From the NCBI GenBank assembly GCA_022709525.1, contig JAKLIQ010000004.1, positions 73,260 through 137,259 of the forward strand: 64,000 nt of DNA, read 5' to 3'. The stretch is from Candidatus Omnitrophota bacterium. GTDB taxonomy: Bacteria > Omnitrophota > Omnitrophia > Omnitrophales > Aquincolibacteriaceae. The translations under genes were made by a program, and so were the position numbers. Of the stretch, positions 15,235-44,924 are shown piece after piece; position 1 is the first letter of the stretch, and every line of letters begins with the position of its first letter. The notes below the pieces were generated by a model that made no database searches, was not told the origin of the DNA, and saw nothing but the letters and a program-made list of their open reading frames with translations.

Positions 15235-16913
15235 ATAAGGCGTCTTCGCCCCATAGGACTTCACTTGCGATCGCCGGGATCCTGGTCTTAGCGGCCTTTT
15301 TAAGATTATGGGGTGTCGGCTTCGGATTGCCGGACCTTTTCCATGCCGACGAACCTGTGGTCGTCAACCATGCTCTTGCTTTCGGGACCGGCGACCTTAA
15401 CCCACACTTTTTTAATATCCCGCCGCTGGTGAGCTATTTGCTTTTTATTTGTTACGGATGCTATTTTCTGATCGGATCCTTGGCCGGCCTCTTCCATTCA
15501 TTGCGCGATTTTGAGTATCTTTTTTATTTTGACCCCTCCTCTTTTTATTTGATCGCCCGGCTGATCTTCGGCGTCCTGTTTGGCGCCGCTTCCGTCTACG
15601 CGTTTTACCGTCTTGCGCGCCGCCTGGGCGATTCCTCGCTCGGTTTGTGGGCAAGTTTTTTTCTGGCTGTCAACTTCCTTCACGCCAGAGATTCCCACTA
15701 TGTCTATGCGGATATTCCGCTCCTTTTCGCTCTTATTTGCGCCTTCTATCCCATTCTGCGGATATCAGATGAACCCTCCTTTAAAAAATGGCATGTTTTA
15801 GCCGGTTTTTGGATCGGGCTCGCCACGGCAACAAAATACAATGGTGTTTTTCTGGTGATCCCGTATATCTGGATATGCGTCCGGAGCATTTCCTGGAAGA
15901 AATGGCCTGCTCTCTGGAGCTTTGCGTTTCTAACAGCTATTCTTACATTCATCGCGCTCAATCCATTTTCGGTCCTGGATCACGGTTTTTTCTTGAAAGA
16001 AATCTTTGAGCAATCGGCGTCGAATCGCGGGGGATTACCTTGGCATCATCACTTCACTTACTCTCTCGCTGGCGGGATGGGTTGGCCGATGCTTGTGCTG
16101 GCGCTCTGGGGGACCTTGATCGCCCTGTTCCGGGGCGACCGAAAGATCCAAGCAATCGCCATCTTCGCTCTGGCTTATTACGCCGTCCTTTTTTTCTTTG
16201 CCCAGCCCTATGACCGCTACGTCCTTCCGCTCATTCCTTTCGCGCTTTTGCTTGCGGCAAAGGTTTTACTTCAATGGAAGGCGCGTTCCAGTCTTATATT
16301 TTGGGTCCTCATCCCGTTTTTAGTCTTGCCGTCCCTGATCAAGATCATTCATTGGGACAGGATCATGTCGAGACCCGACGTCAGGACCTTGGCTAAAGAA
16401 TGGGTGGAGGCGAACATCCCCGCGGGAAGCCGCCTGGCCCTTGATGGCACGTTTTACATGCCTCGCCTAGCTTTTAGTCCGACGCAACTTGAAGAAAAGA
16501 AAGCAAAAGCCGGAGGCGGCCATCATGGGGAGGTGAAATCCCGCCGCATCGATGCCTTGTTGTCGCGCCCCCGCCATCCTTCCTATGAACTTTATTTTTT
16601 AAACCGCGACCTCGGCGCCAAAGACGCTTTTCTTTTTTCAGAGCCGCGCATTCCATTCGATGTGAGCGCGCTCAAAGAAAATAATATCGAGTATGTATTT
16701 CTTATCGATGGTCTTCATCAGGATGACGATCCGTTCTATCAGACCCTTCAGGACCAAGCCGAGTTGGTCATGATATTTTCGCCCTATCTTGATCAAACGG
16801 ACATGATCATCCGCGATTCCCAGGCCATGACGGGCGGGCCGTTCCTTTGGAGCGATATATTGCCGCGTAAACGAAACGGCTACCCGATCAGCGTTTATCG
16901 CCTCCGTTCGTAA
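15231..16913 (+). CDS. GT-C fold membrane glycosyltransferase (ArnT/PMT_2 family)
   Basis: About 11 transmembrane helices, a HADEP acidic motif in the first periplasmic loop and a C-terminal soluble domain. ATGA overlap with the upstream GT2. Confidence 0.75.
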   Translation: MNKASSPHRTSLAIAGILVLAAFLRLWGVGFGLPDLFHADEPVVVNHALAFGTGDLNPHFFNIPPLVSYLLFICYGCYFLIGSLAGLFHSLRDFEYLFYFDPSSFYLIARLIFGVLFGAASVYAFYRLARRLGDSSLGLWASFFLAVNFLHARDSHYVYADIPLLFALICAFYPILRISDEPSFKKWHVLAGFWIGLATATKYNGVFLVIPYIWICVRSISWKKWPALWSFAFLTAILTFIALNPFSVLDHGFFLKEIFEQSASNRGGLPWHHHFTYSLAGGMGWPMLVLALWGTLIALFRGDRKIQAIAIFALAYYAVLFFFAQPYDRYVLPLIPFALLLAAKVLLQWKARSSLIFWVLIPFLVLPSLIKIIHWDRIMSRPDVRTLAKEWVEANIPAGSRLALDGTFYMPRLAFSPTQLEEKKAKAGGGHHGEVKSRRIDALLSRPRHPSYELYFLNRDLGAKDAFLFSEPRIPFDVSALKENNIEYVFLIDGLHQDDDPFYQTLQDQAELVMIFSPYLDQTDMIIRDSQAMTGGPFLWSDILPRKRNGYPISVYRLRS

Positions 16914-16983: not shown

Positions 16984-18054
16984 GTGGAAAATGAAAAAAC
17001 GCTAGTGATGGGGAACGTTGCGATGTCGGAAGCTGCCGTCCGGGCAGGATGCCGCTTCTACGCGGGCTATCCCATTACCCCCCAGAACGAAGTGAGCGAA
17101 TATCTTGCAAAACGGCTTCCGGAGGTGGGTGGAGTTTTTGTCCAGGCGGAATCGGAATTAGCCGCCATCAATATGGTTTTTGGCGCGGCTTCGACCGGGG
17201 AACGCGCGATGACCTCTTCTTCAAGCCCCGGGATCAGTCTTATGCAAGAAGCCATTTCGTATCTCGCCGCGGCCCAGATCCCGTGTCTTATTGCGAATAT
17301 CATGCGTGGCGGTCCCGGCCTCGGTAATATCCAGGGCTCTCAAGCGGACTATTTTCAGGCGACGCGCGGCGGCGGTCACGGGGATTATCGACTGATCGTT
17401 CTGGCGCCATGGTCGGTGCAGGAGATGTATGATCTTACGATCCGCGGATTCGAGCTCGGGGATCAATATCGCAACCCCGTCATGCTCCTGGCGGACGGGA
17501 TCCTGGGCCAGATGGCCGAATCGATCGAACTGAAAAAGCCTGGAAAACAAAAACCCGTTCCAAAGAATTGGGCTCTCACGGGCTGCGCGGGCCGGAAACC
17601 CAACGTGGTCCGGACGCTTTACCTCCAGGAAAAGGATGCCTTGGAACAAAAGAACGCGGAGCTTCAGGCGAAATATGAACTGATCACCCGGGAGCTGCAG
17701 CTTTCCGAGGCGCGTTTTGAAAAAGACGCAGAGATCGCCGTTATCGCTTATGGGACCTCGGCCAGGATCGCTCATTGGGCCGTCAAACGGGCCAGGGAAT
17801 CTGGCATTAAAGTCGGGCTCTTCCGTCCCATCACCCTTTGGCCGTTCCCCGCGACGGCCCTCCGGGAGATCGCGGCCCATTGCCGGAAACTCCTAGTGGT
17901 CGAAATGAGCCAGGGGCAAATGATCGAAGACGTCCGTCTTTCGAGGATCCCCGCGACAGGGGTCGACCCCAAGATCGAATTTTTAGGCCGCGGCGGTGGA
18001 TGGTACCCCAAGCCCAAGGAACTTTTGGCCAAGATCATGGAGATCGCAAAATAA
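16984..18054 (+). CDS. korA: 2-oxoacid:ferredoxin oxidoreductase subunit alpha
   Basis: Pyruvate-flavodoxin/ferredoxin oxidoreductase core domains and domain III. Confidence 0.8.
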   Translation: MENEKTLVMGNVAMSEAAVRAGCRFYAGYPITPQNEVSEYLAKRLPEVGGVFVQAESELAAINMVFGAASTGERAMTSSSSPGISLMQEAISYLAAAQIPCLIANIMRGGPGLGNIQGSQADYFQATRGGGHGDYRLIVLAPWSVQEMYDLTIRGFELGDQYRNPVMLLADGILGQMAESIELKKPGKQKPVPKNWALTGCAGRKPNVVRTLYLQEKDALEQKNAELQAKYELITRELQLSEARFEKDAEIAVIAYGTSARIAHWAVKRARESGIKVGLFRPITLWPFPATALREIAAHCRKLLVVEMSQGQMIEDVRLSRIPATGVDPKIEFLGRGGGWYPKPKELLAKIMEIAK

Positions 18055-18785
18055 TGAATGCTGACGCGAAAACCATCAGATCCGGACGGATGCACTATTG
18101 CCCGGTTTGCGGGCATACGATCGCACAGCGCATGATCGGCGATGTGATCGATGAGCTGGGGATCCGCGAACGAACGATCGGTACGGCGCCGGTCGGATGC
18201 GCCGTGTTGCTCTATGATTATTTTAATTGCGACATCATCGAATGTCCCCACGGAAGGATCCCCGCGGTCGCGACGGGCATCAAGCGGATGCGGCCCGAAA
18301 ATATCGTCTTCGCGTATGGGGGCGACGGAGATCTTCTTTCGATCGGGCTCGCGGAGACCATCCACTGCGCCAATCGGGGAGAGAATATCACCATGATCTT
18401 TATCAATAATGCGGTCTATGGGATGACCGGCGGACAAATGGCGCCGACTACCTTGATCGGCCAAAAAACCATTACAACCCCCGAGGGAAGGATGTCGACC
18501 CTGACCGGCGCGCCTTTGAGGATCTGCGAAATGTTCGACACGCTGGCCAGCCCCGTTTTTATCGAACGCGTGGCGGTCCATGATGCGCCGCATATGCACC
18601 GCGCCAAGCAGGCGATCCGAAAGGCTTTTCAGAATCAGATCGAAGGAAAAGGATTTTCTTTTGTCGAGATCCTTTCGATGTGTCCGACCCACTGGAAAAT
18701 GGCGGGGAAGGATGCCTGTCAGTTCGTGGGGAATGAAATGGCGGGCTATTTTTCGATCAAAAAATTCAGGGATGTGGACGCATGA
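18054..18785 (+). CDS. korB: 2-oxoacid:ferredoxin oxidoreductase subunit beta (TPP-binding)
   Basis: CPVCGH motif and a GDG TPP-binding motif (YGGDGDL). TAATG overlap with korA. Confidence 0.85.
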   Translation: MNADAKTIRSGRMHYCPVCGHTIAQRMIGDVIDELGIRERTIGTAPVGCAVLLYDYFNCDIIECPHGRIPAVATGIKRMRPENIVFAYGGDGDLLSIGLAETIHCANRGENITMIFINNAVYGMTGGQMAPTTLIGQKTITTPEGRMSTLTGAPLRICEMFDTLASPVFIERVAVHDAPHMHRAKQAIRKAFQNQIEGKGFSFVEILSMCPTHWKMAGKDACQFVGNEMAGYFSIKKFRDVDA

Positions 18786-19333
18786 TAGAAGAAAAGATCT
18801 TTGTCGCGGGCTTCGGAGGCCAAGGGGTCGTTGTGGCCGGGAACGTTCTTGCCCATGCGGCTTTGGAAGAAGGCCGTTATATTCTCGGGATGGTCTCCTA
18901 CGGTGTGGAAGTGCGCGGGGGAGCGTCTCACAGTTTCGTGATCATATCGGATCAGGAGATCGACTGCCCCATTATTGATGAGGCGACGCTCGGGTTCGCG
19001 CTCAGCCAGGCCGCTTATGAAAAATTCAAGACAAAAACTCGTCCCGACGGGATCTTTTTTATCGATTCTTCACAAGTAAGTAATATTGACCCCGCGCAAA
19101 CGACCGGCCGCATCATCGAGATCCCCGCGACGCAGATCGCCCGCGAGGTCGGAAATGAAAAAGTAACGAATATGATCATGCTTGGCGCCGCCATCCAGAA
19201 AACAGGGATCGTGAAAATGGCGAGCGCGGTGAAAATCCTCGGAAAAGTATTTAAAGGGCTCCGGAAAGACCTGATCTATGTGAATGAAAAAGCTCTTCAG
19301 GTCGGCGCGGATTTTATGCGCCAAAAAAGATAG
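18782..19333 (+). CDS. korC: 2-oxoacid:ferredoxin oxidoreductase subunit gamma
   Basis: The FVAGFGGQGVV gamma-subunit motif. Confidence 0.8.
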   Translation: MIEEKIFVAGFGGQGVVVAGNVLAHAALEEGRYILGMVSYGVEVRGGASHSFVIISDQEIDCPIIDEATLGFALSQAAYEKFKTKTRPDGIFFIDSSQVSNIDPAQTTGRIIEIPATQIAREVGNEKVTNMIMLGAAIQKTGIVKMASAVKILGKVFKGLRKDLIYVNEKALQVGADFMRQKR

Positions 19334-19361: not shown

Positions 19362-20126
19362 TTATGGCTTTTCAGCTCTGTATTTCTTAGAGCAACGATA
19401 CCGCCAGAATTTCAAACCTTCCCAAAGCGCGGATCCCATGATCTTCATATTCACGGAAGATTTTCCCGCCTGGCGGCCCCGGTGGTTCGAAGGGATCTCC
19501 TTGATGCGGAACCCGAGATCGTGGGCCTTGATGATGATCTCGGGTAAAACAAAAAGCGATTTTGAAGTAAGGTCGATCCGGTCTAAAACTTTCCGGCTCC
19601 AGGCCTGCGACCAGTTGTAGTCGTTGATACGGATCTTAAAAAGATAGTTCAATAAAAAGATATAGATCACGGAAAGAAAGAACCGGAAAAGCTGGTAAGC
19701 ATTCCGCTGCCAGCGCACCCCCAATACAATATCCGCTTCGTCGCGTTGGAAGATCTCGACAAAATTGGGGATTTCGGAGGAATCGAATTCTTCATCGGCG
19801 CCGATGTACATCAGATATTTTCCGTGCGATGCGGCAATCCCGTCCTTGAGGGAGTGGGTATAACCTTGATTTTTTTCATGAACAATCAACTGGGTATTCG
19901 GATATTTAGAAATTTCAGTCTGTAGGACCTCCCGAGTTCTGTCTTTACTGCCGTCTTCAATGAGGATGACTTCCCAATTCCATTCCGGGTGAGCGGTTAG
20001 AATGGTGAAGAGATTGGCGAGCATCCGCGCAATATTTTCCTGCTCGTTATAGACCGGCGTGATAAAGCTGATAAATGGCTGGTTGATCATGCGGATTAAA
20101 TTAATGTTTTTTGCTAGGGATGTCAA
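19362..20126 (-). CDS. GT2 family glycosyltransferase
   Basis: SFITPVYNE, EDGSKD and a DxD motif. Confidence 0.8.
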   Translation of the reverse strand: MTSLAKNINLIRMINQPFISFITPVYNEQENIARMLANLFTILTAHPEWNWEVILIEDGSKDRTREVLQTEISKYPNTQLIVHEKNQGYTHSLKDGIAASHGKYLMYIGADEEFDSSEIPNFVEIFQRDEADIVLGVRWQRNAYQLFRFFLSVIYIFLLNYLFKIRINDYNWSQAWSRKVLDRIDLTSKSLFVLPEIIIKAHDLGFRIKEIPSNHRGRQAGKSSVNMKIMGSALWEGLKFWRYRCSKKYRAEKP

Positions 20127-20189
20127 TGTTATACTGTGCCTGTTTTTGTCATTGAAAGTAAGGTTTTATAAACGGAATAGGGGAACGAA

Positions 20190-21059
20190 GTGCTTATGAG
20201 ACCAGAGGTTAGCGTTATTCTTCCGGCCTATAACGAAGAGGCTGCGATCGGACCCGTAATTGATGCGGTGCAGACTGCCATGAAAGGCTCCCGGTGGTCT
20301 TACGAGATTCTTGTCATCGATGACTGCTCTACAGATCGGACCGCCGAAATCGCCGAAACAAAAAAAGTAAAAGTCATTCGTCGACCGATCAAAGGAGGAT
20401 CGGGCGCATCCCGCCGAACCGGCATACTGTCCGCCGAAGGAGAGATTATTGTTATGCTTGACGCGGACGGCTCCTATGAAGCATCGGACATCCCCAAGCT
20501 TTTGGAGTATTTTCCGATGTATGATCAGGTCAACGGTGCCCGAACCAGCGAGCAAGGAACTTTGAAGATCTTAAGAGCTCCGGCTAAATGGCTTATCCGA
20601 AGCCTGGCATGCTATTTAACAAACACTCATATCCCGGATCTTAATACCGGTCTCAAGGCCTTCAAGAAAGATATTATGAAAAAATACCTCTGGGTTCTGC
20701 CTAACGGGTTTTCCTGCGTCACGACCATGACGCTGGCTTTTCTGACGAACGGTTACGCTGTCAAATACGTCCCGACGACTTATCACAAGCGCATCGGAAA
20801 ATCTAAATTCCATCCCGTCAAAGACACGCTCGCGTATATTAAAACAGTGATCCGTATGGTGATGTATTTTAAGCCCTTGCGGGTTTTCATGCCTGCCGCT
20901 GGTTTTATTTTTGCTCTTGGGATCGTAAAATCCATCTGGAGTTTTAGCGCTACCAATACGCTTCAAGAATCGGATATCATTATTTTTATGGCCGCGATCA
21001 TGCTCACATTCCTCGGATTGATAAGCGATCTGATCGCGACTTATCAAAACCGTTCCTAG
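20190..21059 (+). CDS. GT2 polyprenyl-phosphate sugar synthase with C-terminal TM helices (GtrB/CsbB-like)
   Basis: SVILPAYNE, DDCSTDRT and a DAD motif. Two C-terminal transmembrane helices, typical of GtrB/CsbB. Confidence 0.8.
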   Translation: MLMRPEVSVILPAYNEEAAIGPVIDAVQTAMKGSRWSYEILVIDDCSTDRTAEIAETKKVKVIRRPIKGGSGASRRTGILSAEGEIIVMLDADGSYEASDIPKLLEYFPMYDQVNGARTSEQGTLKILRAPAKWLIRSLACYLTNTHIPDLNTGLKAFKKDIMKKYLWVLPNGFSCVTTMTLAFLTNGYAVKYVPTTYHKRIGKSKFHPVKDTLAYIKTVIRMVMYFKPLRVFMPAAGFIFALGIVKSIWSFSATNTLQESDIIIFMAAIMLTFLGLISDLIATYQNRS

Positions 21060-21082
21060 AAATTTCTCGGGAGCAACTTCCC

Positions 21083-22699
21083 ATGGCGGAACAAAATCTA
21101 AAAGACCTTTATTTTTTGGAAGGGATCCAGTACGTTCCAAAGCTTCTTGAGCTAGCTGACAGGAACCGCCTCAACTCTACCTATGGTTGCTTTGATCGGG
21201 GCTTCTGGCATTATCGAACAATCGATTTTCCAAGTGGCATGTACCAGGAATCTGTATTGCCGTTAGCGCTAGCTTTCACATTAAAACATCCCTCTAATCC
21301 TTACTATCAAAATCAGCGGATTCGAGAGATTGTTCTTGCGGGCATTGATTACGCGCAACGCTCTGCCTACTCCGATGGATCGTGCGATGATTATTTCCCC
21401 TTTGAGCGCGCGGCTGGCGCCACAGCCTTTTCGCTTTATGCCTGCACGGAAGCCCTTCTGGTCCTTGGTGAAAAAGGAACGGAGCGTCACGAATTCCTGA
21501 AATTGCGGGCTAACTATCTCACCGAAGAGGGAATGCGAGAATCCGGCGTTTTATCGAACCACAAAGCCTTGATCGTTCTCGGGCTTTATAATACCTTTCT
21601 ATTGACCCAAGATGCGTCCTTTCGGGATAAAGCTGCGGCATGTTTGAAAAAACTTTTAGATCTGCAAACGGACGAAGGCTGGTTCCCTGAATATGAAGGA
21701 TGTGACCCGGGGTATTTGACATTTACAATCGATTTCTTGGCGAAGTATTATCAAAAATCCTCAGATCCTTCCGTTGTAGAACCGCTTCGTAAAGCGATCG
21801 GTTTTGCTTCCTATTTAATGCATCCTGACGGCAGTTTCGGCGGGGAATATGGGAGCCGTAACACTTTTCATTTTGTGCCGCACGGCTTTGAAATCATGGC
21901 GGCATTAGAGCCCCGGGCCATCTCCCTGACCAATGCGTTCTTGAGATCGCTTCGTCAAAAAACGCGATCATATTTGGAAGATGATCGCATTTTTATTCAT
22001 TACACCTATAATTATCTGCAAAGTTACAAAGATTTTTTTGAGCGAAAAGAATCACAGAACGAAAATACCCCCTCTGTTTTTCAAAAATTTTTTGAAAAAG
22101 CAGGATTTCTTGTCGTTTCTACGCCGCAGGATTACGCGGTCATCGGGATCCGAAAGGGCGGTACCGCCAAGATATTCAAAAAGACCGTTCTAAAATACAG
22201 CGACTCCGGGCTTCTTGGAACCACGGTGTGTGGAAAACGTTTTACTTCACAGGTCATCTCAAACTGGAATTATACGATCGAAAAGGATCTTCTTGTGATC
22301 GAAGGGAATAGCTGCGTCTATAAGCCTCTATTATTTCATCCTCTGTCATTTCTTTGCTTTCGCGCTTTCGTTCTTTTTGTCGCTCGCTTTTTTTCTCCGA
22401 ATTTCATCCGGAAATTTTTACAGACAAAAGCTATCACAAAAAAAGAGAGAAAGCTCCCGGTCCGCGTCCGCAAAGAAATACCTCTCAAAACGCTGGACCG
22501 CATCCGCTACCAGATCTCTCTCGAAGATCCCGCTTTAAAGATCAAAGATCTTTGGATCAGTTCGGATGCGACATTCATCTATGTCGCCACAAGCCAACCC
22601 TTTCAAGGCGCTAATCTTCTGCCATGGATCGATCTGAATGCCGTTTTGCCCGAACTAAACGCAAAACGATCGATCTCATACGAATATCGGATCGCATGA
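21083..22699 (+). CDS. Hypothetical protein (538 aa), function unknown
   Basis: Long ORF, co-directional and tightly packed between the GtrB-like GT2 and the flippase-like gene. One hydrophobic segment near the C-terminus. No motif recognised. Confidence 0.5.
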   Translation: MAEQNLKDLYFLEGIQYVPKLLELADRNRLNSTYGCFDRGFWHYRTIDFPSGMYQESVLPLALAFTLKHPSNPYYQNQRIREIVLAGIDYAQRSAYSDGSCDDYFPFERAAGATAFSLYACTEALLVLGEKGTERHEFLKLRANYLTEEGMRESGVLSNHKALIVLGLYNTFLLTQDASFRDKAAACLKKLLDLQTDEGWFPEYEGCDPGYLTFTIDFLAKYYQKSSDPSVVEPLRKAIGFASYLMHPDGSFGGEYGSRNTFHFVPHGFEIMAALEPRAISLTNAFLRSLRQKTRSYLEDDRIFIHYTYNYLQSYKDFFERKESQNENTPSVFQKFFEKAGFLVVSTPQDYAVIGIRKGGTAKIFKKTVLKYSDSGLLGTTVCGKRFTSQVISNWNYTIEKDLLVIEGNSCVYKPLLFHPLSFLCFRAFVLFVARFFSPNFIRKFLQTKAITKKERKLPVRVRKEIPLKTLDRIRYQISLEDPALKIKDLWISSDATFIYVATSQPFQGANLLPWIDLNAVLPELNAKRSISYEYRIA

Positions 22700-23625
22700 A
22701 ACGCCTTCTTCCGCTGACTTTTTCCGTCCTGATCCTGATCATCATCTTTTCGCGGATCAATCTTGCGGATTTCGGAAACTACATCGCTTCGTTAGATATC
22801 CCGTTATTCGCTGCAGCCCTGCTTTGTTTCATCCCGCAGGTCCTCATTTCGGCCTGGCGCTGGAAATTCCTTATCAGAAAAAAAGCATCGTTGGGCCTCT
22901 TTGAATCCGTCAAGCTGGTGCTCGCGTCTTCTTCGCTAAATGTTTTTCTGCCGTCAAAAATAGGGGATCTTTCAAAAGCCTATTTTCTTAAAAAACAAGG
23001 AAAAATAGAATTAAAGCGGGGAACCAACGTGGTGCTTTTCGAACGTTATATTGATACAGCCTCGCTTTGCAGCATGGCGGTTTTAGGCATCCTGACCGAA
23101 GGGAGCTTTAGCCGTCATTTTTTAATTCTTCTCGGGATCTCATGCGGCGTTATCGCTCTATTTCCGGTCCTCTACTTTTTGAAATTCGAAAAAGAACCGA
23201 AATTTTCGTTTGGCGGAAAACATCCGTGGATGGAAAAACTGCGCCATTTCTTAAAAGACGCTCAGGAATATCTTCTCGAACTTAAGAAAGATCAAAAAAC
23301 GCTTTGGCTCGCTATCGCTGCATCCGTTTTTCTGTGGTCGCTTCATCTTTTTCAATTTTATCTCGTTTTCCTGGCGATCCATGCCCCGGTTGCCTGGTAT
23401 CACGTTTTTTGTTTTGTCCCAGTCTCTATTTTAATAGGCATGATCCCCATAACGCTTGCGGGGATCGGCTCGCGGGACGCGGCGCTCATTCTTTTATTTG
23501 CCCCCTATGCGCCTGCCTCCCAAATGATTTTTATCGGTATTTTCGCTTCCTTGCGATATTTCATACCCGGGATCTGCGGCATTCCGTTCCTCCATCAATA
23601 CATGATCGAAGAACATGCGGAATAA
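22696..23625 (+). CDS. Flippase-like membrane protein (lysylphosphatidylglycerol-synthase TM-region/UPF0104-like)
   Basis: 8 transmembrane helices over ~310 aa and an ATGA overlap with the upstream gene. This family commonly sits beside GtrB-like GT2 genes. Confidence 0.55.
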   Translation: MKRLLPLTFSVLILIIIFSRINLADFGNYIASLDIPLFAAALLCFIPQVLISAWRWKFLIRKKASLGLFESVKLVLASSSLNVFLPSKIGDLSKAYFLKKQGKIELKRGTNVVLFERYIDTASLCSMAVLGILTEGSFSRHFLILLGISCGVIALFPVLYFLKFEKEPKFSFGGKHPWMEKLRHFLKDAQEYLLELKKDQKTLWLAIAASVFLWSLHLFQFYLVFLAIHAPVAWYHVFCFVPVSILIGMIPITLAGIGSRDAALILLFAPYAPASQMIFIGIFASLRYFIPGICGIPFLHQYMIEEHAE

Positions 23626-26600
23626 AACGACCTCCGGCTTTTTTACTGGGGAATCCCTGCCTTTATGTCTTTTAGGGCTCGCGATATTCCTTTTTTTCAT
23701 TGAAGTTTTTTTTCTCAAGGTCGGATTTTTTAGCGGGGATCACCGGGCGCAGCATTATCCTTGGGCCGCATTTTATGCGGCTCACATCAAGAACTTTCAG
23801 CTCCCGTGGTGGACGACGCTCTTCCATTGCGGCTTTCCGCTCCTCGCCGAAGGGCAAGTAGGAGCGCTTTATCCGCTTAACATTGTTTTCTATTTTTTCC
23901 TGCCGTTCCCTTTAGCCTATACTTACAATATCTTGGCGCATTTTTTTATTTCCGCTTTTTTTATTTATATCTTGTTGCGTTCCTTAGGCCTTTCACGAAG
24001 CGCTGCCTTGTTCGGCGGATTGATCTATTTGTTCGGTACGGCTCAAGGCGGCTATTATTACAACATCATTTCACTCAAAGTTCTGACCTGGTTTCCGTTC
24101 GCGCTGTATTTGGTCCGTAAGATCATCGAAGACGATCGCTACGATCTTTTCTCATGGCTCGCCCTTGTCTTTGCCTTTCAGATATTCGCCGGTTATCTGC
24201 AATACGCTGTTTATTCGATCGCATTCACGGCATTCTTTTTTTTCTGGTTTGCCTTCTCTAAATCTAGAGAAACTCATCGGCCGGACCGTTTCTGGAAACA
24301 ATTCGCCGCTTTCGCCGCGGCCCTTTTTTGCGCGATCCTCGTCGCATTGCCGCAATTGGGGAGCGCTCTTGAATTGTCTTTTTTTTCAAACCGCTATGGT
24401 TTCCCCGATGAATTCGCATACCTTGGCTCGCTTAACCCTGCGGCCGTAATGACGCTTTTTTTTCCGCAATGGGACGGCTTCCTTGGCGCTGAGATTTATG
24501 TTGGGGCTATCGGCCTTTTCTTCTTTTTGGTTTCCCTGTTTTTGCCAAAAAACAAACCAGAGCGCTTTTTTTTCTGGATGTTATTGGTAGCGCTGCTATG
24601 CGCGCTCGGAAAATTCAACCCTCTTTTTGTCCTGTTTGTAAAGCTCACGCACTTCACAAGCTTTAGAATACCGACGAAATTCATGTATTTTGCGGCTTTC
24701 GCGAGTTCGGTGCTGTGCGCTTACGGCTTTCAAAAATGGCAGGGTTTGGGACCGACCGCGCCTTCTTTTAAAAAACCATATCGGGCCTTTCTGGTCGTAT
24801 CCGGTCTAGGCATTCTAACGCTCCTCTCCGGCAGCGCGCTTCTTAAGCTTTTTGAAAATCCGATCAAGGATGCCGCGAGACAATTCATGAGCGTGAATTT
24901 TTCCCACTCGGTGGTCCACACCTTGCCGATGGAAGTTTATTTCGAGCGCTTGAACCTCTTCTATGAAAACATCCTAAACGCCATAGCACTTTCCAACCCG
25001 TGGAACCTTGCTTTTCTCTTATTTATGGCCGGAAGTATTATAGCGGTCGCGTATCTTCAAAGCATCGGATGGCGTGCGACGCGCCTCATAAAAATAGCGC
25101 TCTTTCTTTTTTTATTCACAAATCTATATGTTTACAGCTGGACCACCATCAAGGGCAATTACGAAACAGAACGTTTTATAAAAAAACCGTCGAAGCTGAT
25201 CGATGATTTAAAAGATCAAAAAGGAACTTTCCGCGTTCACCGCCTTATCACTGCAGTCCACAAAACGGAAGGATTCCCCATGCCACCGCATACCAACATG
25301 CTGGACCGGCTCTCCATCGTTGGCGGCTATAGCCCTCTGGTTCGGGCAGATTATTACGATCTTCTTGAAGGTATTGGCGACATCGACGATTCGAACCGCC
25401 TTAAGACCGCCACTCAAGAATCCATTGCCAACGAAAAAGCTCTTTTAAATTTTCTAAATGTGCGCTATCTCATCACCGATGAAATCCTGCATGATCCTTC
25501 TTTTGAAAAAATCGCGGAAGAAGGGGATTACTACCTATACCAAAATGCGGACGTCATGCCGCGGGCTTTTTGGGTCGCGAATTCATTCCAAATGAATACC
25601 CAAAAAGATTTTACGGGTCTCGTCCACACGGGGAAATTCGAACCTCAGAGATACGCTTACCTAGCTTCCGCCGATAGCGCTCAAACAACAAATAACTCTC
25701 TGCCATGGCTTCCCGCAACTATCCTTGAAGATCAAGATTCCCGCGCGGTCTTTTTAATCAACGTGCCGGCGCCGGGTTTTTTGGTCACGAGCGATCTTTC
25801 TTATCCGGGGTGGCATGCTTACGTGAACGGCGTTGAAAAACCAGTGCTCCAAGTAAACGGCGTCTTCCGAGGCTTGCAACTCGATGATCCCGGAAATACG
25901 ACGATCGAGTTTCGATACCAGCCTATTTGGCGAACAATCGCCGGATTTTCTGCCGCTTTCGGATTAATCTTGTTCTTAATGCCGCTTGCCCGCGGACAGA
26001 AAGGATCCCGTCAACGCTCTTTACCTACCGAAAAAACTAGCGACTTCATCCGAACGCTAAAACCCTATCTCGTCACTCGAGAGACTTGTCCGTCCTGTCA
26101 GTGTTCCACAAAAGGACTTCGAACATATCGACTTGAGCATTTTAATCTCTACCGTTGCTTGTGCGGTTTGCGATTTATCGATCCCTCTTTGAACGCCGAA
26201 GGTCAAATGATGATCTATCAATCCTCCGAGGCACTAAAAAAGATCAATCCAGCCCTTGAACATTACTACGAATATGAAACATTAAAAAAGGGAGGTCGGA
26301 CCCGTAACGATTACGAGAAATCCCTTGGAGCGCTAAGAAAAGCGGGCGCTCACGGACAAATGCTCGAAGTGGGGTGCGGCACCGGTTCTTTTCTGCGATT
26401 TGCGCATGAACGCGGGTGGCAAGTGCTCGGTATTGATTCGAGCAAGCCAAATATCGAATTGCTAGCACGGCAAAATATTCCGGCGATCTGTGAAGATTTT
26501 TTGAACTTGAAATCGGAAAAAAAATTTGGCGTTATCGTTCTTTGGGATGTCCTTGAGCATTTTCAAGACCCTTCGACGTTCATTAAAAAAAGCTTTGAGC

Positions 26601-26944
26601 TTCTCGAATCAGAGGGCTTGATCCTGATCGCCGCGCCGCTCTATCCTAATCTCTTGAGCTCGCTGGCTGAGCTCGTATACCGGGTGAGTTTTGGAAAAAT
26701 ACGGGGACCTATGGAGAAAATGTACATGGTAGAACATGCCTTGTATTTCAGCGAGAAATCACTTGCTGACATTTTAATGCGGCATGGTTTTACGAAAAAG
26801 ATCTCTTGGCGAACGGAAACAGATTTAAGACGTTATGCTTTTGGACCAATGACCCGCTTTCTTTTAGCCTGTTTTTTCATCTTGGCGCGACTTCTAAAAC
26901 AGCAAAATCGAACTATTTTCATCGGACAAAAAAAAGTTTTTTGA
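23615..26944 (+). CDS. YfhO-like GT-C membrane glycosyltransferase fused to a C-terminal Zn-ribbon plus class I SAM methyltransferase
   Basis: N-terminal ~780 aa is polytopic with a large extracytoplasmic domain, YfhO-like. The C-terminus has CPSCQC...CLCG and a methyltransferase motif I (LEVGCGTGSF). Confidence 0.6.
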   Translation: MRNKTTSGFFTGESLPLCLLGLAIFLFFIEVFFLKVGFFSGDHRAQHYPWAAFYAAHIKNFQLPWWTTLFHCGFPLLAEGQVGALYPLNIVFYFFLPFPLAYTYNILAHFFISAFFIYILLRSLGLSRSAALFGGLIYLFGTAQGGYYYNIISLKVLTWFPFALYLVRKIIEDDRYDLFSWLALVFAFQIFAGYLQYAVYSIAFTAFFFFWFAFSKSRETHRPDRFWKQFAAFAAALFCAILVALPQLGSALELSFFSNRYGFPDEFAYLGSLNPAAVMTLFFPQWDGFLGAEIYVGAIGLFFFLVSLFLPKNKPERFFFWMLLVALLCALGKFNPLFVLFVKLTHFTSFRIPTKFMYFAAFASSVLCAYGFQKWQGLGPTAPSFKKPYRAFLVVSGLGILTLLSGSALLKLFENPIKDAARQFMSVNFSHSVVHTLPMEVYFERLNLFYENILNAIALSNPWNLAFLLFMAGSIIAVAYLQSIGWRATRLIKIALFLFLFTNLYVYSWTTIKGNYETERFIKKPSKLIDDLKDQKGTFRVHRLITAVHKTEGFPMPPHTNMLDRLSIVGGYSPLVRADYYDLLEGIGDIDDSNRLKTATQESIANEKALLNFLNVRYLITDEILHDPSFEKIAEEGDYYLYQNADVMPRAFWVANSFQMNTQKDFTGLVHTGKFEPQRYAYLASADSAQTTNNSLPWLPATILEDQDSRAVFLINVPAPGFLVTSDLSYPGWHAYVNGVEKPVLQVNGVFRGLQLDDPGNTTIEFRYQPIWRTIAGFSAAFGLILFLMPLARGQKGSRQRSLPTEKTSDFIRTLKPYLVTRETCPSCQCSTKGLRTYRLEHFNLYRCLCGLRFIDPSLNAEGQMMIYQSSEALKKINPALEHYYEYETLKKGGRTRNDYEKSLGALRKAGAHGQMLEVGCGTGSFLRFAHERGWQVLGIDSSKPNIELLARQNIPAICEDFLNLKSEKKFGVIVLWDVLEHFQDPSTFIKKSFELLESEGLILIAAPLYPNLLSSLAELVYRVSFGKIRGPMEKMYMVEHALYFSEKSLADILMRHGFTKKISWRTETDLRRYAFGPMTRFLLACFFILARLLKQQNRTIFIGQKKVF

Positions 26945-26946
26945 CC

Positions 26947-28428
26947 ATGATCCCTTTTTCCATTCTTCTCTTCGCATTTTTGCTAAAAATCCCGTTCCTC
27001 GCCAAACCCTTGGTCGGTTACTTTGGGAGCTACCAGACCATCAACGCGATGATGGCCCAAATGATGCTGCATGGTCCTTGGCAAAACCTCACCGCGCCAC
27101 GCACCTTTATCCTATTCGATGGACATCCGGGGCTTCATTTAATTTACTATCCCATCGGTTCTTTAGCTGCGGCGGTTTTGAATTCGTTTTTTAGCGGGTC
27201 CCTTGTTTTTTGGGGACGCTTCCAAGCAGCCTTATTCGCATTACTGGCAGGAGTCTTCTTTTTCAAAAGTACTGAAAAGATACTCAATCGCCGGATCGCC
27301 CTTATTTCGCTCTTCATCTTCTCGCTTTCACCTACGGTTATGACCATGGGGACTAGCTTCCAGAATGAGGCGCCGGCTCTTTTTTTTCTGAGTTTCGCTT
27401 TTTGGCTATTTTTATCAGAAAAGATTTATGCCGGGTTCCTGGCCGGGCTTTTATTTGCTTTTGCCGTCGCGGCCCGTCTTCATTTCTTATCTGTTGCGCC
27501 GGTTTTTTTATTTGTCTGGGGTTCGGAAAAAAGAAAGGGGCGCCAGCTTCTAGTTTTTATATTAGGGTTATTGATCCCGATTTTCTTGCTCTACGGATAT
27601 TACTATTTGCTTGAAAAAAATTTTCCAACGCAGGTGATGACCAGCCTTTTCAGCCAATCCCATGAAGGCCGCCTTTTACCGGATTTCTTGGGGTTTACAA
27701 AAGATTTCTACTCACGATTACTGATGATTATGATCGGTCCTTGGCTGACCCCGGTCATTCTGCCTCTATTGCTATTGCAGAACCCTGCCCGATGGAAAAA
27801 GGAACGGATTTTTGGGATTTGGCTTGTTTTCTCTCTTTCCGTGATCGTTCTTCTGCCTAAAAAAGTTGCTGATCATCCTTTTTATCTGATCCATTGCGTC
27901 CCCGCAGCAGCGGTCTTAGCTGCATCCGCCTATGAGACATTTAAAGGCTTGATACGGAAAAGCATCCGTGTTTTGTTTTGGAGCGCTTTTCTTTTTTGCG
28001 CTTTACGCTATTATGTGCCGACCGCGTTATCGGGAGGAATGGACAAAAAGAAAATCCCAGCGATAGGGAAGCAGGTCCAGGCTTTAACGCAACCTCAAGA
28101 CAAGATCATTGCTTCCCATGGTTCGTCGCCCGATCTTTTATATTACGCGAACAGATGGGGCTGGCCCTTTAGTTTGACGATGAGGGAAAGCTATGTCCTG
28201 ACGAGCCCGCAGCCGCGCCATCAACGATTGGTCGGGAAAGGATACGGCGATCCAGTTCTCTGGCTTGAAAAATTACGCTCTGAGGGAGCCGCTTATTTAG
28301 TGCTTACAGAACCCGATGTCTTTCGCGCGCAAAAAGATTTTTTTGATCATGTTATGAAGAATTATCCACTTGTACAAAAAAGCGATAGATCGTTCTTGCT
28401 TTTTGATCTGAGAGAAAAACGCACATGA
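26947..28428 (+). CDS. GT-C fold membrane glycosyltransferase (ArnT/PMT_2-like)
   Basis: Polytopic N-terminal region with a C-terminal soluble domain. TGA/ATG coupling with the upstream gene. Confidence 0.6.
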   Translation: MIPFSILLFAFLLKIPFLAKPLVGYFGSYQTINAMMAQMMLHGPWQNLTAPRTFILFDGHPGLHLIYYPIGSLAAAVLNSFFSGSLVFWGRFQAALFALLAGVFFFKSTEKILNRRIALISLFIFSLSPTVMTMGTSFQNEAPALFFLSFAFWLFLSEKIYAGFLAGLLFAFAVAARLHFLSVAPVFLFVWGSEKRKGRQLLVFILGLLIPIFLLYGYYYLLEKNFPTQVMTSLFSQSHEGRLLPDFLGFTKDFYSRLLMIMIGPWLTPVILPLLLLQNPARWKKERIFGIWLVFSLSVIVLLPKKVADHPFYLIHCVPAAAVLAASAYETFKGLIRKSIRVLFWSAFLFCALRYYVPTALSGGMDKKKIPAIGKQVQALTQPQDKIIASHGSSPDLLYYANRWGWPFSLTMRESYVLTSPQPRHQRLVGKGYGDPVLWLEKLRSEGAAYLVLTEPDVFRAQKDFFDHVMKNYPLVQKSDRSFLLFDLREKRT

Positions 28429-29141
28429 AAACTTTGATCGTAATGCCCACCTATAATGAACGCGACAATATCGAGCGCCTTGTGGGCCGCCTGATGAACG
28501 TCGATTCCGGCATCGATGTTCTCATAGTTGACGACAATTCGCCTGACGGAACAGGGGATCTTGCAGAAAGACTCGCGCAAAAGAATCCGAGAATTCATGT
28601 GCTTCGACGGCCCGGCAAACAAGGTCTTGGGCCCGCGTATATCGCCGGCTTCCAATGGGGATTGTCGCGCGATTACGACGCTTTCATGGAAATGGATGCG
28701 GATCTATCGCATCGCCCTCGCTATATTCCGCGTTTTTTACAGGAAATCAAAGATGCGGATATCGTCGTAGGGTCTCGGTGGATCAAAGGGGGAGGTATCG
28801 CGAATTGGCCTCTATCCCGTGTTTTTCTTAGCCGTATGGCGAGCCTCTATGCAAAGCTTATTCTTGGCGTATCGATCGCCGACATGACCGCCGGCTACAT
28901 CTGTTATCGCCGTAAAGTTTTGGAAGAGCTCGGACTTGATCGTATTCATTCTGACGGTTATTGCTTTCAAATCGAAATGAAATATCGCGCCCTTTGCCGC
29001 GGCTTCAAGATCGTCGAGATCCCCATCATTTTCACCGATCGTAAGGCGGGGAATTCTAAAATCTCACGTCATATCGTTCTTGAAGCCCTGATTATCACCT
29101 GGATACTACGATTCAGAAAAAAGCTATTTGAACGACCATGA
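28425..29141 (+). CDS. Polyprenol/dolichol-phosphate mannosyltransferase-like GT2 (Dpm1/Ppm1 family)
   Basis: LIVMPTYNERDNI, VDDNSPDGT and a DAD motif. 238 aa, soluble. Confidence 0.85.
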   Translation: MKTLIVMPTYNERDNIERLVGRLMNVDSGIDVLIVDDNSPDGTGDLAERLAQKNPRIHVLRRPGKQGLGPAYIAGFQWGLSRDYDAFMEMDADLSHRPRYIPRFLQEIKDADIVVGSRWIKGGGIANWPLSRVFLSRMASLYAKLILGVSIADMTAGYICYRRKVLEELGLDRIHSDGYCFQIEMKYRALCRGFKIVEIPIIFTDRKAGNSKISRHIVLEALIITWILRFRKKLFERP

Positions 29142-29269: not shown

Positions 29270-31066
29270 ATGGACCAATTTGCCGCGTTTGTTCATGTTG
29301 TATGGATTGTCGCTCTCGGAAATTTCTGGGGCCAACGGATCCTTGTTTGGGCAAAGTATAAGTTTGATTCCGAACTCGAACGAACTGCTTTTGGTTTTGC
29401 GGCCGGATTCGGCTCTTTTGGCCTTCTCTTGGCGATCCTCGGCTCCTTGGGTTTCTTTTCCGCTTCGGCTTGTTATTTATTTTTCATCTCTCTGACCGTT
29501 CTTCTTTTTTTTGGCTGGAAAGACCTACCCCCCTGGAACCCAAGGTTGATTTTTGAAGCATTACAAAAAAGCCCGCTTCTTTGGGCGCTAAGCGCTGTGC
29601 TGGCTCTAGCCATCATTCAATCCATGACCCCTTCAACTGCTCATGACGCGCTTGCTTACCAGCTTGAAATACCAAAACGCTTTGCACTGGCTCATCGTAT
29701 TTGCTATGTGCCATACGGCGTCAATTCCGTATTCCCGCTACTCATGAACATGTTCTATGTTCTTTCATTGCTTTGGGACGGAACCCGCATGGCAAATCTG
29801 TTCCATTGCGTGACCGGCCTTGGCATCGTTATCGGATTACTTGCGATCGAGAGAAGATTCATTCCAAAGTCTTGGCTCGGAATAAGCGCTTTGATTTTCG
29901 CGTTGACCCCCGGTATTTTTGGTCAAATGTCACTGGCCTACACCGATGTCGCTTTGAGTTTTTTTATTTTCTTTGTTTTTTATTCGATTTTAAAATGGCA
30001 GGAAACCGCGGATCTGAAATGGTTCGTTCTGGCTGGCATCTACTTGGGCTTTGCCTTCGGAGTAAAATACCTTGCGGCGCTCGCCGCAATTTCGGTTACG
30101 GCGTATTTGATTGTCCTTGCGTCTTTAAGGAAAATAAAACTAGGGCCAGCGCTTGCGGGGCTTTTTTTGATGGCTTCCATTTCCTTCTTGATCGGATTCG
30201 CTTGGTATTTTCGTTCTTTTCTCTACGAAGGAAGCTTTCTTTACTTTGGAGAAAAAGGCTACATCGCCAAAAATCTGGGATATCTCAATTCATTTGCGCT
30301 TCCTTGGTCGATGACAATGCATCCACAATACTTTGGAGGCTCGTGGACGCGGCTTGGCATCATATTCCTAGCTTTTTTGCCCGGTTTGTTTCTGATTCGA
30401 AAGAAACCGGCGGCCGCTAACACTTTTCTTTTTTGGGGGATCATTTATTTTTGCTTGTGGACCCTTCTACCGAGACAGAATCTTCGCTTCCTTTTTCCGG
30501 TCTGCGCGCTGTGGTCGTTACCCATCGGCCATCTGATCGCATCCGGTTTTCCTGAGAAATGGCTCACGAAATGGTCCCGAATTTTTATTTTTGCCATTCT
30601 TATAATCGAGGCGGGTGCAGCTTTTTATCACGGAAGGAACAGCTACCGGGTCGCCCTGGGATTAGAGACTGAGGAGGATTATTTAAAACGAACGGAGCGA
30701 ACTTATGCGGTTGCTCAATTTGTGAACACGAATCTCCCTGAAAATGCAAAGATTCTAAATGCTTACGAGGTCCGGATGTTCCATTTTCGGCCGGAAGTGA
30801 TACGTGAGCCGGAATTTCGCCAAAAAACACACTACGACACTCGCTTCGCAACTTCCGAAGAAACCGTCGATTTTTTAAAACGTGCCGGCATCACCCATGT
30901 TTTGATCGCCCCGAGCGATGCTGCGGAGAAGCAAATCTTTCCGCCAAGAAATATCCGCCAACTTGTTTCCGATGCTCAAGTCGGGAAGAGCCGCTTTAAG
31001 GAGCTCTATCGAGAACCTTCCCAAAAAGATTCCGAATCAGGATATACGGTCCTGAGCCTTATATAA
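29270..31066 (+). CDS. GT-C fold membrane glycosyltransferase (PMT_2/ArnT family)
   Basis: Polytopic membrane protein with a STAHDALAYQLEIPKRF acidic-loop motif and a C-terminal soluble domain. Confidence 0.7.
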   Translation: MDQFAAFVHVVWIVALGNFWGQRILVWAKYKFDSELERTAFGFAAGFGSFGLLLAILGSLGFFSASACYLFFISLTVLLFFGWKDLPPWNPRLIFEALQKSPLLWALSAVLALAIIQSMTPSTAHDALAYQLEIPKRFALAHRICYVPYGVNSVFPLLMNMFYVLSLLWDGTRMANLFHCVTGLGIVIGLLAIERRFIPKSWLGISALIFALTPGIFGQMSLAYTDVALSFFIFFVFYSILKWQETADLKWFVLAGIYLGFAFGVKYLAALAAISVTAYLIVLASLRKIKLGPALAGLFLMASISFLIGFAWYFRSFLYEGSFLYFGEKGYIAKNLGYLNSFALPWSMTMHPQYFGGSWTRLGIIFLAFLPGLFLIRKKPAAANTFLFWGIIYFCLWTLLPRQNLRFLFPVCALWSLPIGHLIASGFPEKWLTKWSRIFIFAILIIEAGAAFYHGRNSYRVALGLETEEDYLKRTERTYAVAQFVNTNLPENAKILNAYEVRMFHFRPEVIREPEFRQKTHYDTRFATSEETVDFLKRAGITHVLIAPSDAAEKQIFPPRNIRQLVSDAQVGKSRFKELYREPSQKDSESGYTVLSLI

Positions 31067-31112
31067 TCCTTGAGCTTTGCTCCTTTTTTGTTTTTGTTTG
31101 ATTTCAAGGATT
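31065..31112 (+). terminator. Terminator-like structure: 9-bp inverted repeat AATCCTTGA/TCAAGGATT enclosing a GAGC-TTT-GCTC hairpin plus T-tract
   Basis: Read directly, immediately after the GT-C stop codon and before the phosphoramidate module. Confidence 0.4.
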
Positions 31113-31169
31113 CTCCAGAGTACGCTATTCGCTCAAATGTCTTATTTTGAATCATTAAGAGGATTTTGC

Positions 31170-34150: not shown

Positions 34151-34158
34151 GGGGTTCC

Positions 34159-35681: not shown

Positions 35682-35698
35682 ATCGGAAGGGTAAGGCC

Positions 35699-44033: not shown

Positions 44034-44169
44034 AGAATGACGGGGATTGTATCACAGAGAATGCGAAAAAAGAATCTTTGGCTTGGCTTTTTCCGGCATC
44101 TTTGTTATAGTCGGTCCCGAACTTGCTTTTGCAGCAACGCGTGTTTTAAAATAAAAATGAGGCCATATT

Positions 44170-44916: not shown

Positions 44917-44924
44917 CCTGCCCC

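Follow-up and report, generated by a model that had tools for sequence, protein, structure and literature searches.

A conserved gene trio for a polyprenyl-phosphate sugar synthase-type GT2, a predicted toroid-fold protein and an MprF-domain protein precedes YfhO-family and PMT_2-type GT-C genes in an Omnitrophota envelope-glycan locus

Introduction

The question addressed here is whether a set of tightly packed genes in a 64,000-nucleotide (nt) stretch of Candidatus Omnitrophota bacterium DNA (GenBank assembly GCA_022709525.1, contig JAKLIQ010000004.1, positions 73,260 to 137,259; termed the window, the numbering of which is used throughout) specifies a periplasmic glycosylation system and, if so, which step in it would be performed by a 538-amino-acid (aa) protein to which no Pfam or NCBIfam family could be assigned. 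The gene for this protein is located between those for a family 2 glycosyltransferase (GT2, designated here as GT2b) and a flippase-like protein, and is followed by the gene for an 1109-aa protein that combines a glycosyltransferase of the C fold (GT-C) with a methyltransferase domain. A preliminary description of this DNA had read these genes as a three-component glycosylation system with one additional protein. The GT2, the GT-C and a candidate flippase of that reading were retained in the present analysis, while the family of the flippase, the bounds of the unit, the role of the 538-aa protein and the partner of the methyltransferase were revised. In the pathway that we favour, and in which we have moderate confidence, GT2b would load a sugar onto a lipid carrier, the 538-aa protein would re-tailor it, the flippase-like protein, which is of the MprF type, would flip it, and YfhO- and PMT_2-type GT-Cs would attach it on the outside.

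Organization of the locus

The features of the locus and of its immediate continuation are as follows (values given after family names are E-values).

19362–20126, minus strand: GT2a, 254 aa, divergent from the operon (PF00535, 1.8e-27)
20190–21059, plus strand: GT2b, 289 aa, or 287 aa from the ATG (PF00535, 4.7e-26)
21083–22699, plus strand: 538-aa protein, predicted (α/α) toroid plus β-sandwich, no Pfam or NCBIfam family
22696–23625, plus strand: flippase-like protein, 309 aa (PF03706, 2.3e-46)
23615–26005, plus strand: YfhO-family GT-C part of the 1109-aa protein, residues 1–797
26078–26944, plus strand: methyltransferase part of the 1109-aa protein, residues 822–1109 (Methyltransf_23, 1.4e-21)
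26947–28428, plus strand: PMT_2-type GT-C, 493 aa (PMT_2, 1.4e-5)
28425–29141, plus strand: GT2c, 238 aa (PF00535, 1.3e-31)
29270–31066, plus strand: PMT/PMT_2-type GT-C, 598 aa (PMT_2, 2.7e-7; PMT, 4.1e-5)

All open reading frames (ORFs) of the preliminary description, including that of 1109 aa (23615–26944), were recovered at the same positions, and the ATGA and 11-nt overlaps reported there could be read directly in the sequence. GT2b and the 538-aa gene are separated by 23 nt. The stop codon of the 538-aa gene and the start codon of the flippase-like gene share the ATGA at 22696–22699, so that the flippase-like protein starts at 22696 and consists of 309 aa, the length that it also has in public gene calls. 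The flippase-like gene in turn overlaps that of the 1109-aa protein by 11 nt (23615–23625), and the 493-aa GT-C gene starts at 26947, i.e. 2 nt past the stop codon of the 1109-aa ORF. The entire arrangement is syntenic in an Omnitrophica metagenome-assembled genome (MAG; locus L003) that encodes a 538-aa orthologue with 66% identity; this synteny, together with the recurrence of the GT2-538-flippase trio across phyla (see below), argues against a chance assemblage.

The locus represents the 5′ part of a long, tightly packed and co-directional operon, which extends from 20190 to at least 36577. The surrounding envelope-glycan super-locus exceeds 50 kb and belongs to an Omnitrophota-like diderm. 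Several of the locus proteins have their best relatives in Omnitrophota MAGs, and the diderm nature of the host follows from the presence of an LptD homologue in the window (7186–9540; PF04453, 4.6e-13). The proximity of lptD, to which attention had been drawn previously, was thereby borne out as regards its presence, but the gene lies ~10 kb upstream and is not adjacent to the locus. At least five GT2/GT-C sets are encoded in the window, of which the unit described here is one.

A promoter region shared between the operon and the divergently oriented GT2a gene had also been proposed. This could not be shown, as a promoter/terminator scan returned fewer promoter-like sites than were obtained in shuffled sequences, and none in the spacer between GT2a and GT2b. 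The G+C content is 0.50–0.55 upstream (1–20 kb) and 0.45–0.48 over the remainder of the window, with the drop beginning at this locus; this could reflect either acquired DNA or a compositional effect of membrane-protein genes.

GT2b resembles membrane-anchored polyprenyl-phosphate sugar synthases

Sequence comparison revealed an end-to-end match of GT2b to AglJ (TIGR04182, 4.7e-34, residues 6–287), as well as matches to a dolichol-phosphate (Dol-P)-hexose transferase model (3.6e-28), PpgS and ArnC. The best relatives of solved structure were the dolichol-phosphate-mannose synthase (DPMS) of Pyrococcus (5mlz, 6.4e-14), ArnC and GtrB. According to hydropathy analysis, the glycosyltransferase A-fold (GT-A) domain is followed by two C-terminal transmembrane (TM) segments (231–250 and 257–285). 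The GtrB-type architecture with C-terminal helices that had been attributed to GT2b is therefore upheld, both by its topology and by its similarity to GtrB, DPMS, ArnC and AglJ. Because of this full-length similarity and the two C-terminal helices, GT2b was assigned to the polyprenyl-phosphate sugar synthases, and the sequence evidence supports its prediction as a membrane-anchored enzyme of this type.

The divergent GT2a was shown by hydropathy analysis to possess a single hydrophobic stretch and to lack the C-terminal TM pair. It exhibited partial NCBIfam matches to PgaC, ArnC and PgfS, and its true start is likely to be the ATG at residue 13, near 20090. GT2c is DPM1-like, with AglJ, Dol-P-hexose transferase and ArnC-type matches, and is devoid of TM segments as judged by hydropathy.

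The 538-aa protein represents a widespread unnamed family with a predicted toroid fold

More than 1842 homologues of the 538-aa protein were retrieved, every one of them unnamed. A pattern scan located the family in at least 579 GTDB species, and its range includes Omnitrophota, Sumerlaeota, Myxococcota, Desulfobacterota, cyanobacteria, Planctomycetota, Gemmatimonadota and, among archaea, a Methanosarcinales MAG. In the family alignment, 56 columns are invariant, and Asp, Glu, His, Tyr and Arg are frequent among them. When employed as a profile against the sequences of the Protein Data Bank (PDB), this alignment returned no significant match, and comparison of the protein with Lyase_8, Hepar_II_III and Alginate_lyase yielded only sub-threshold Pec_lyase and Alginate_lyase fragments.

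The AlphaFold2 (AF2) model of the protein (pLDDT 92, pTM 0.93) is composed of an N-terminal (α/α) toroid (residues ~1–316) and a C-terminal antiparallel β-sandwich (~333–536), into which a short hydrophobic and basic helical hairpin (~420–450) is inserted. Foldseek matched this model to polysaccharide lyases (PL), namely PL8 chondroitin, hyaluronate and xanthan lyases, PL33 and PL12 members and heparinase III, and to human dermatan sulfate (DS)-epimerase 1 (E-values of 1.5e-8 to 1e-6, probability 1.0, TM-scores of 0.45–0.56, identity ~10%). The shared (α/α) toroid and antiparallel β-sandwich thus connect the 538-aa protein with PL8, PL33, heparinase II/III and DS-epimerase 1 enzymes, from which it differs by its low identity, its predicted cytoplasmic location and the hydrophobic hairpin in its β-sandwich. 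An N-terminal signal-like hydrophobic segment was found neither in the protein nor in the family consensus, and the protein is predicted from its sequence to be located in the cytoplasm. We propose that it modifies a lipid-linked sugar. A uronic-acid substrate, which the fold would suggest, was considered and dropped, as a gene for UDP-glucose dehydrogenase (Ugd) is found nearby in just 3 of 81 family loci.

The 538-aa protein is the core of a conserved trio

To characterize the genomic context of the family without bias, all neighbours within 5 kb of a 538-family gene were clustered for ~78 loci. The leading neighbours proved to be a DPM1-like GT2 (33 loci) and the flippase-like protein (30 loci), followed by polytopic membrane proteins of unknown type (14 and 10 loci). 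The usual order is GT2-538-flippase, with gaps ranging from −2 to ~200 nt, and a large polytopic membrane protein is encoded within 6 kb in 15 of the 24 strictly defined trio loci. YfhO accompanies the trio in three of the ~78 loci, these being from Omnitrophota. The 538-aa protein, which had been described as an extra component, is thus instead the anchor of a GT2-538-flippase trio that is conserved in many phyla.

Several variations on this context were observed. In cyanobacterial loci (L064, L046, L050, L054, L058 and L067; Lyngbya, Limnoraphis and relatives), the toroid gene was found without a GT2 or flippase-like neighbour at the level of BLAST, and was flanked, ~1.5 kb to either side, by genes for 570–590-aa proteins with 9–11 TM helices, one of which has no Pfam match and another only an EamA domain. 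In a Tectomicrobia MAG (L015, 11628–13856), the gene that follows the toroid homologue encodes a 742-aa fusion, the N-terminal third of which matches the flippase-like protein, while its C-terminal part represents a GT4 glycosyltransferase.

The flippase-like protein consists of the MprF flippase domain

The 309-aa protein, a polytopic membrane protein, matches PF03706 over positions 2–300 of the 302-position model (2.3e-46) and TIGR00374 at 9.6e-27, in agreement with the earlier suggestion of a flippase-like protein of the lysylphosphatidylglycerol (LPG)-synthase TM-region type. It scored 15 bits against the bifunctional MprF model NF033480 (cutoff 600) and 16.5 bits against NF053789, the model of the flippase for glucosamine (GlcN)-phosphatidylglycerol (PG) (cutoff 320). 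The protein corresponds to the TM flippase domain of MprF alone and, because the C-terminal aminoacyl-PG synthase domain is absent, is not a bona fide MprF-type lysyl-PG synthase, a possibility that had been raised against the glycosylation reading. Characterized multi-component systems employ GtrA or Wzx flippases (PMC8035078), and the present candidate belongs to neither family. No GtrA match was obtained among the window ORFs that were scanned, and the Wzx-like gene of the window is located 36 kb away (59646–61157).

The 1109-aa protein combines a divergent YfhO-family GT-C with a methyltransferase

The YfhO-like character claimed for the 1109-aa protein could not be confirmed by a direct match, as the N-terminal 830 residues returned nothing from Pfam, including PF09586, even at E ≤ 10; it was, however, recovered by transitive homology for the N-terminal 800 aa and by the GT-C fold. 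A search of 5.8 billion proteins identified 78 homologues of 700–900 aa, most of which carry PF09586. Among 37 aligned full-length homologues, which are 21–47% identical, PF09586 was matched by 28 (best 6.4e-35). One homologue of 1178 aa (P0214) possesses an N-terminal extension of ~390 aa. The family alignment used as a profile against PDB sequences gave no significant match.

The AF2 model of the protein displays pLDDT values above 90 over most of residues 10–800, and Foldseek matched it to AftD (1.8e-5) as well as to STT3, EmbA/B, AftA and Pmt4. A Wzy- or O-antigen-ligase-like N-terminal region had been named as an alternative identity; the fold found is that of a GT-C, and neither Wzy nor WaaL structures were present among the Foldseek matches listed. 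Hydropathy analysis predicted ~13 TM segments in residues 8–509, a soluble domain of 260 aa and a final TM segment (771–793). This layout, with a polytopic N-terminal module, then a large extracytoplasmic domain and finally a TM segment at the C-terminal end, was deduced from hydropathy and AF2 secondary structure and is that of YfhO. The first loop contains the conserved motif SGDHRxQHYPW and the invariant Asp42. On the basis of the PF09586 matches of its homologues, the GT-C fold and Asp42, the N-terminal part is, by sequence comparison and structural modelling, assigned as a divergent YfhO-family GT-C.

A class I S-adenosylmethionine (SAM)-dependent methyltransferase domain occupies residues 822–1109, with the match to Methyltransf_23 (1.4e-21) at 909–1060. 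It carries a Cys-rich motif in its N-terminal part and a hydrophobic helix (1076–1094) in its C-terminal part. As this domain follows the last TM segment (771–793), it is predicted to be cytoplasmic. The fusion itself, as first described, is real: two variants of the fused 1109-aa ORF, one residue apart, were obtained from separate assemblies, and an assembly artefact is therefore unlikely. It is also unusual, since a search of 1.84 billion representatives yielded, within its 150 best matches, no protein other than that of the window that spans both parts, the methyltransferase homologues among these matches being stand-alone proteins of 295–311 aa.

Relatives, however, encode the methyltransferase in a gene of its own, the partner of which is the PMT_2-type GT-C gene downstream of it and not specifically that for YfhO. 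In L003, the gene next to that for YfhO specifies a separate protein of 293 aa, to which the domain is 45% identical over 285 aa, and a stand-alone methyltransferase gene lies directly 5′ of the orthologue of the 493-aa GT-C in L083 (43% identity), L084 (37%), L002 (29%) and L003. In L086, the methyltransferase gene follows YfhO-like and 598-aa GT-C-like genes, and it is always beside GT-C genes in L002, L083, L084 and L086. These neighbours identify the methyltransferase as a member of a conserved block that comprises YfhO, the methyltransferase, the 493-aa GT-C, a GT2 and the 598-aa GT-C, and extends to 31066. The unit previously drawn to end at 26944 was correct in the identity of its components but mis-bounded, the functional block reaching at least 31066. 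Of the two further GT-Cs in this block, the 493-aa protein scored 25.8 bits against PMT_2, just below the cutoff of 26.1, whereas the 598-aa protein exceeded the cutoffs of both PMT_2 and PMT and is conserved in L003, L040 and L086.

Comparison with known systems

Like CsbB-GtcA-YfhO of Bacillus, Staphylococcus and Listeria, and GtrA/B/V and ArnC/E/F/T of Gram-negatives, the locus encodes a membrane-linked GT-A enzyme, a candidate flippase and a GT-C together. It shares a YfhO-family GT-C with the first of these systems, to which PMT_2-type GT-Cs are added here. Its flippase candidate, on the other hand, is of the MprF flippase-domain type rather than of the GtrA, Wzx or ArnE/F types, a fourth conserved component (the 538-aa toroid protein) is placed between synthase and flippase, and a methyltransferase is fused to the GT-C. 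The acceptor is also expected to differ from that of CsbB-GtcA-YfhO, as teichoic acids are absent from a diderm host such as this.

A second resemblance is to gpgSDF of Pseudomonas aeruginosa (GlcN-phosphatidylglycerol) and hexSDF of Clostridioides difficile (an aminohexosyl glycolipid), which encode a glycosyltransferase, a modifier of the lipid-linked sugar and an MprF-type flippase in the same three-gene order as the trio. Conversely, the modifier here is a predicted toroid/β-sandwich protein and not a deacetylase, GT2b resembles polyprenyl-phosphate rather than phospholipid glycosyltransferases, and the flippase-like protein is remote from GpgF (16.5 bits, as above), the trio being translationally coupled to GT-C genes.

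The sugars modified by ArnD and DprE1/DprE2 are linked to polyprenyl phosphate, and are subsequently flipped to serve a GT-C. The same position in the pathway is proposed for the 538-aa protein, although the folds are unrelated.

Proposed pathway

The gene layout shared with gpgSDF and hexSDF, and the pathway position shared with ArnD and DprE1/DprE2, are the grounds on which the following pathway is proposed. Judging from its sequence relatives, GT2b would transfer a hexose-type sugar from a nucleotide sugar onto polyprenyl phosphate at the cytoplasmic face. The 538-aa enzyme, which would be cytoplasmic and probably held at the membrane via its hairpin, would alter this lipid-linked sugar before export, in a position analogous to that of ArnD, DprE1/DprE2, GpgD and HexD; its modelled fold suggests chemistry that involves proton abstraction, such as epimerization. 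Family membership and gene position suggest that the 309-aa protein, with its MprF flippase domain, carries the lipid-linked sugar over to the periplasmic leaflet. Transfer of sugars onto a periplasmic or outer-membrane acceptor would then fall to the YfhO-family GT-C and to the two PMT_2-type GT-Cs encoded after it, which have a DPM1-like GT2 of their own. The methyltransferase would function in the cytoplasm, where SAM is available, and most likely O-methylates a lipid-linked donor for these GT-Cs; its fusion to YfhO may simply have arisen from the adjacency of the two genes. The family and fold assignments and the synteny form the demonstrated part of this scheme, from which we infer the substrate, the reaction of the 538-aa protein, the flipping step and the acceptor. 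As to the family as a whole, we tentatively suggest that the 538-aa protein represents an undescribed and widespread group of enzymes that re-tailor a lipid-linked sugar at the cytoplasmic face, the product of which is exported by the MprF-type flippase.

Several observations weigh against the proposed pathway. To our knowledge, no LPG_synthase_TM member flips polyprenyl-phosphate sugars, and the characterized or proposed substrates of this family, as reflected in the names of NCBIfam models, are modified phospholipids or glycolipids. The fold match of the 538-aa protein is at the level of architecture only (TM-scores of 0.45–0.56, ~10% identity), without a Pfam lyase or heparinase match, and the scarcity of Ugd near the toroid gene (3/81 loci) means that the genomic context fails to back a uronic-acid substrate. 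At BLAST sensitivity, neither a GT2 nor a flippase-like gene is seen in roughly half of the loci of the 538 family, such as those of cyanobacteria. Outside Omnitrophota, the trio is usually without an adjacent YfhO (3/~78 loci), so that the coupling to a GT-C may be lineage-specific. Finally, the methyltransferase part of the AF2 model is of low confidence, and the side of the membrane to which it is allocated rests on a crude hydropathy count.

Alternative explanations

Alternatively, the trio may be an operon in its own right that makes a membrane glycolipid, as gpgSDF and hexSDF do. The GT2 would then act on a phospholipid or diacylglycerol glycolipid, the 538-aa protein would modify the head-group sugar and the MprF-like protein would flip the finished lipid, as the end product, to the outer leaflet, the GT-Cs having donors of their own. 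This explanation, which we consider possible though rather unlikely, accounts for the gene order, which equals that of gpgSDF and hexSDF, for the modified membrane lipids that are the known or proposed substrates of LPG_synthase_TM proteins, and for the fact that YfhO is mostly absent beside the trio outside Omnitrophota; furthermore, the other GT2s of the window (GT2a, GT2c and GT2d) could serve the GT-Cs. It is, however, at odds with the full-length alignment of GT2b to AglJ, DPMS, ArnC, PpgS and GtrB, and with the score of just 16.5 bits of the flippase-like protein against the GlcN-PG flippase model, where 320 is the cutoff. The 11-nt overlap between the flippase-like and YfhO genes, the order of which is kept in L003 and L001, and the large polytopic protein within 6 kb in 15 of 24 strict trio loci likewise speak against it.

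A second alternative concerns the product. Rather than decorating an acceptor, the locus might build a periplasmic polymer, partly O-methylated, through successive GT-Cs (one of the YfhO type and two or more of the PMT_2 type) that use polyprenyl-phosphate donors, much as mycobacterial GT-Cs build arabinan and mannan. The window contains at least five GT-C-type proteins, five DPM1-like GT2s and two Methyltransf_23 proteins, the nearest solved fold to the YfhO-family part, AftD, is that of a polymer-building GT-C, and the block of YfhO, methyltransferase, 493-aa GT-C, GT2 and 598-aa GT-C is conserved, all of which would be in keeping with polymerization. We nevertheless judge it to be distinctly unlikely, given that a Wzx-like protein, rml and other glycan genes suggest a conventional polymer as a possible acceptor, and that teichoic acids receive single sugars from those YfhO proteins that have been characterized (PMC8035078). 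On sequence alone, decoration and polymerization are inseparable.

It is improbable that the 538-aa protein acts at the level of the polymer, as a polysaccharide lyase or C5-epimerase for a uronic-acid glycan, with its gene position reflecting co-regulation only: the PL8, PL33 and PL12 lyases and DS-epimerase 1 at the top of the Foldseek results, the Ugd gene ~10 kb upstream and the polysaccharide loci in which family members occur beside genes for GT4, Wzx-type and asparagine-synthase proteins would fit such a function, but the family lacks a signal peptide and sequence matches to lyase/heparinase Pfam families, Ugd is as rare near its members as noted above (3/81), the placement of the gene between those for GT2 and flippase is strongly conserved from phylum to phylum, and the invariant residues, being mostly acidic, would be untypical of carboxylate-binding sites.

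The wider locus

Further features that pertain to the locus are located upstream and downstream of the genes described above.

14527–15234, plus strand: further GT2, 235 aa (PF00535, 2.5e-31), upstream
15141–16913, plus strand: PMT_2 GT-C, 590 aa, overlapping the preceding GT2 gene (PMT_2, 2.4e-12)
31077–34893, plus strand: glutamine-kinase-like protein of the pyruvate phosphate dikinase (PPDK) family, 813 aa; glutamine amidotransferase (GATase), 211 aa; nucleotidyltransferase, 244 aa; same operon, downstream

The 813-aa PPDK-like protein matches PRK05849 (9.5e-287), which we take to correspond to Cj1418. The 211-aa GATase matches the γ-glutamyl-CDP-amidate hydrolase model NF045546 (2.8e-55) with 187 bits at a cutoff of 250, and the 244-aa nucleotidyltransferase matches NTP_transf_3 and NTP_transferase as well as LicC (1jyk, 1.3e-16). 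From these similarities, 31077–34893 appears to encode a Cj1418/Cj1417/Cj1416-type triad, which would make cytidine diphosphoramidate. This compound is the precursor of O-methyl phosphoramidate (MeOPN), a rare modification known from Campylobacter capsules. The triad was found in at least 584 metagenomic stretches, and in related metagenomic loci the hydrolase (62/80) and the NTP transferase (57/80) were adjacent. As in Cj1416–Cj1418 of Campylobacter jejuni, the kinase, the hydrolase and the LicC-like cytidylyltransferase are encoded in one block; in place of the Cj1415 and Cj1421/1422 types, however, the triad is followed here (34956–36577) by a cytidylate kinase (TIGR00017, 202 bits, cutoff 136) and a 292-aa membrane protein of the CDP-alcohol phosphotransferase family (CDP-OH_P_transf; 35699–36577). 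No match to a Cj1415-like kinase or to Cj1421/1422-like transferases was obtained among the genes scanned. A role for these two downstream proteins in the use or recycling of CDP-amidate was rejected, as they neighbour the triad in 0 of 80 related loci. A role for the methyltransferase in a MeOPN-like phosphoramidate pathway was likewise rejected as the main reading, because it is GT-C and GT2 genes, and not the triad, that are conserved in its vicinity.

Further downstream, the segment 36770–42302 encodes a GalE/LegB-like epimerase, a GmhA-like SIS protein, a radical SAM/SPASM enzyme, a split transketolase and an HldE-like protein in which the order of the domains is reversed (cytidylyltransferase followed by PfkB kinase). 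This gene content resembles that of a route by which a ketose phosphate would be converted into an unusual sugar or alditol in nucleotide-activated form. It is followed by a second module (42309–45797), in which a 574-aa polytopic protein without a Pfam match is encoded on the minus strand, divergently from a GT2 (44170–44916) and a Methyltransf_23 protein (44853–45797). The Wzx-type protein at 59646–61157 is a Polysacc_synt member, and a further PMT_2 GT-C is encoded at 62308–63720.

Upstream, the segment 9589–16913 contains the Ugd gene, rmlA-, rmlB- and rmlD-type genes and a further epimerase gene, in addition to the DPM1-like GT2/PMT_2 GT-C pair listed above. Between this pair and GT2a, the run of glycan genes is broken by those for the subunits of a 2-oxoacid:ferredoxin oxidoreductase (16984–19333). 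Two adjacent GGDEF diguanylate cyclases, one of which carries GAF domains, are encoded just upstream of lptD (4380–7189).

Conclusions

Should the proposed pathway be correct, the GT2-toroid-flippase trio would represent a general cassette, from which varied GT-Cs would obtain modified polyprenyl-phosphate sugars (or glycolipids), and the 309-aa protein would be the first MprF-domain protein to be assigned as a polyprenyl-phosphate sugar flippase. The identity of polyprenyl-phosphate sugar flippases is poorly settled, and a conserved operon that combines a DPMS/ArnC-type synthase with an MprF-type flippase domain provides a testable candidate for this function. The 538-aa family is large, strongly conserved and unannotated, and its fixed position between synthase and flippase points to a new form of lipid-linked sugar tailoring. 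For the uncultivated Omnitrophota, the locus is suggestive of an envelope that is built largely by GT-Cs, with methylation and possibly phosphoramidate chemistry.

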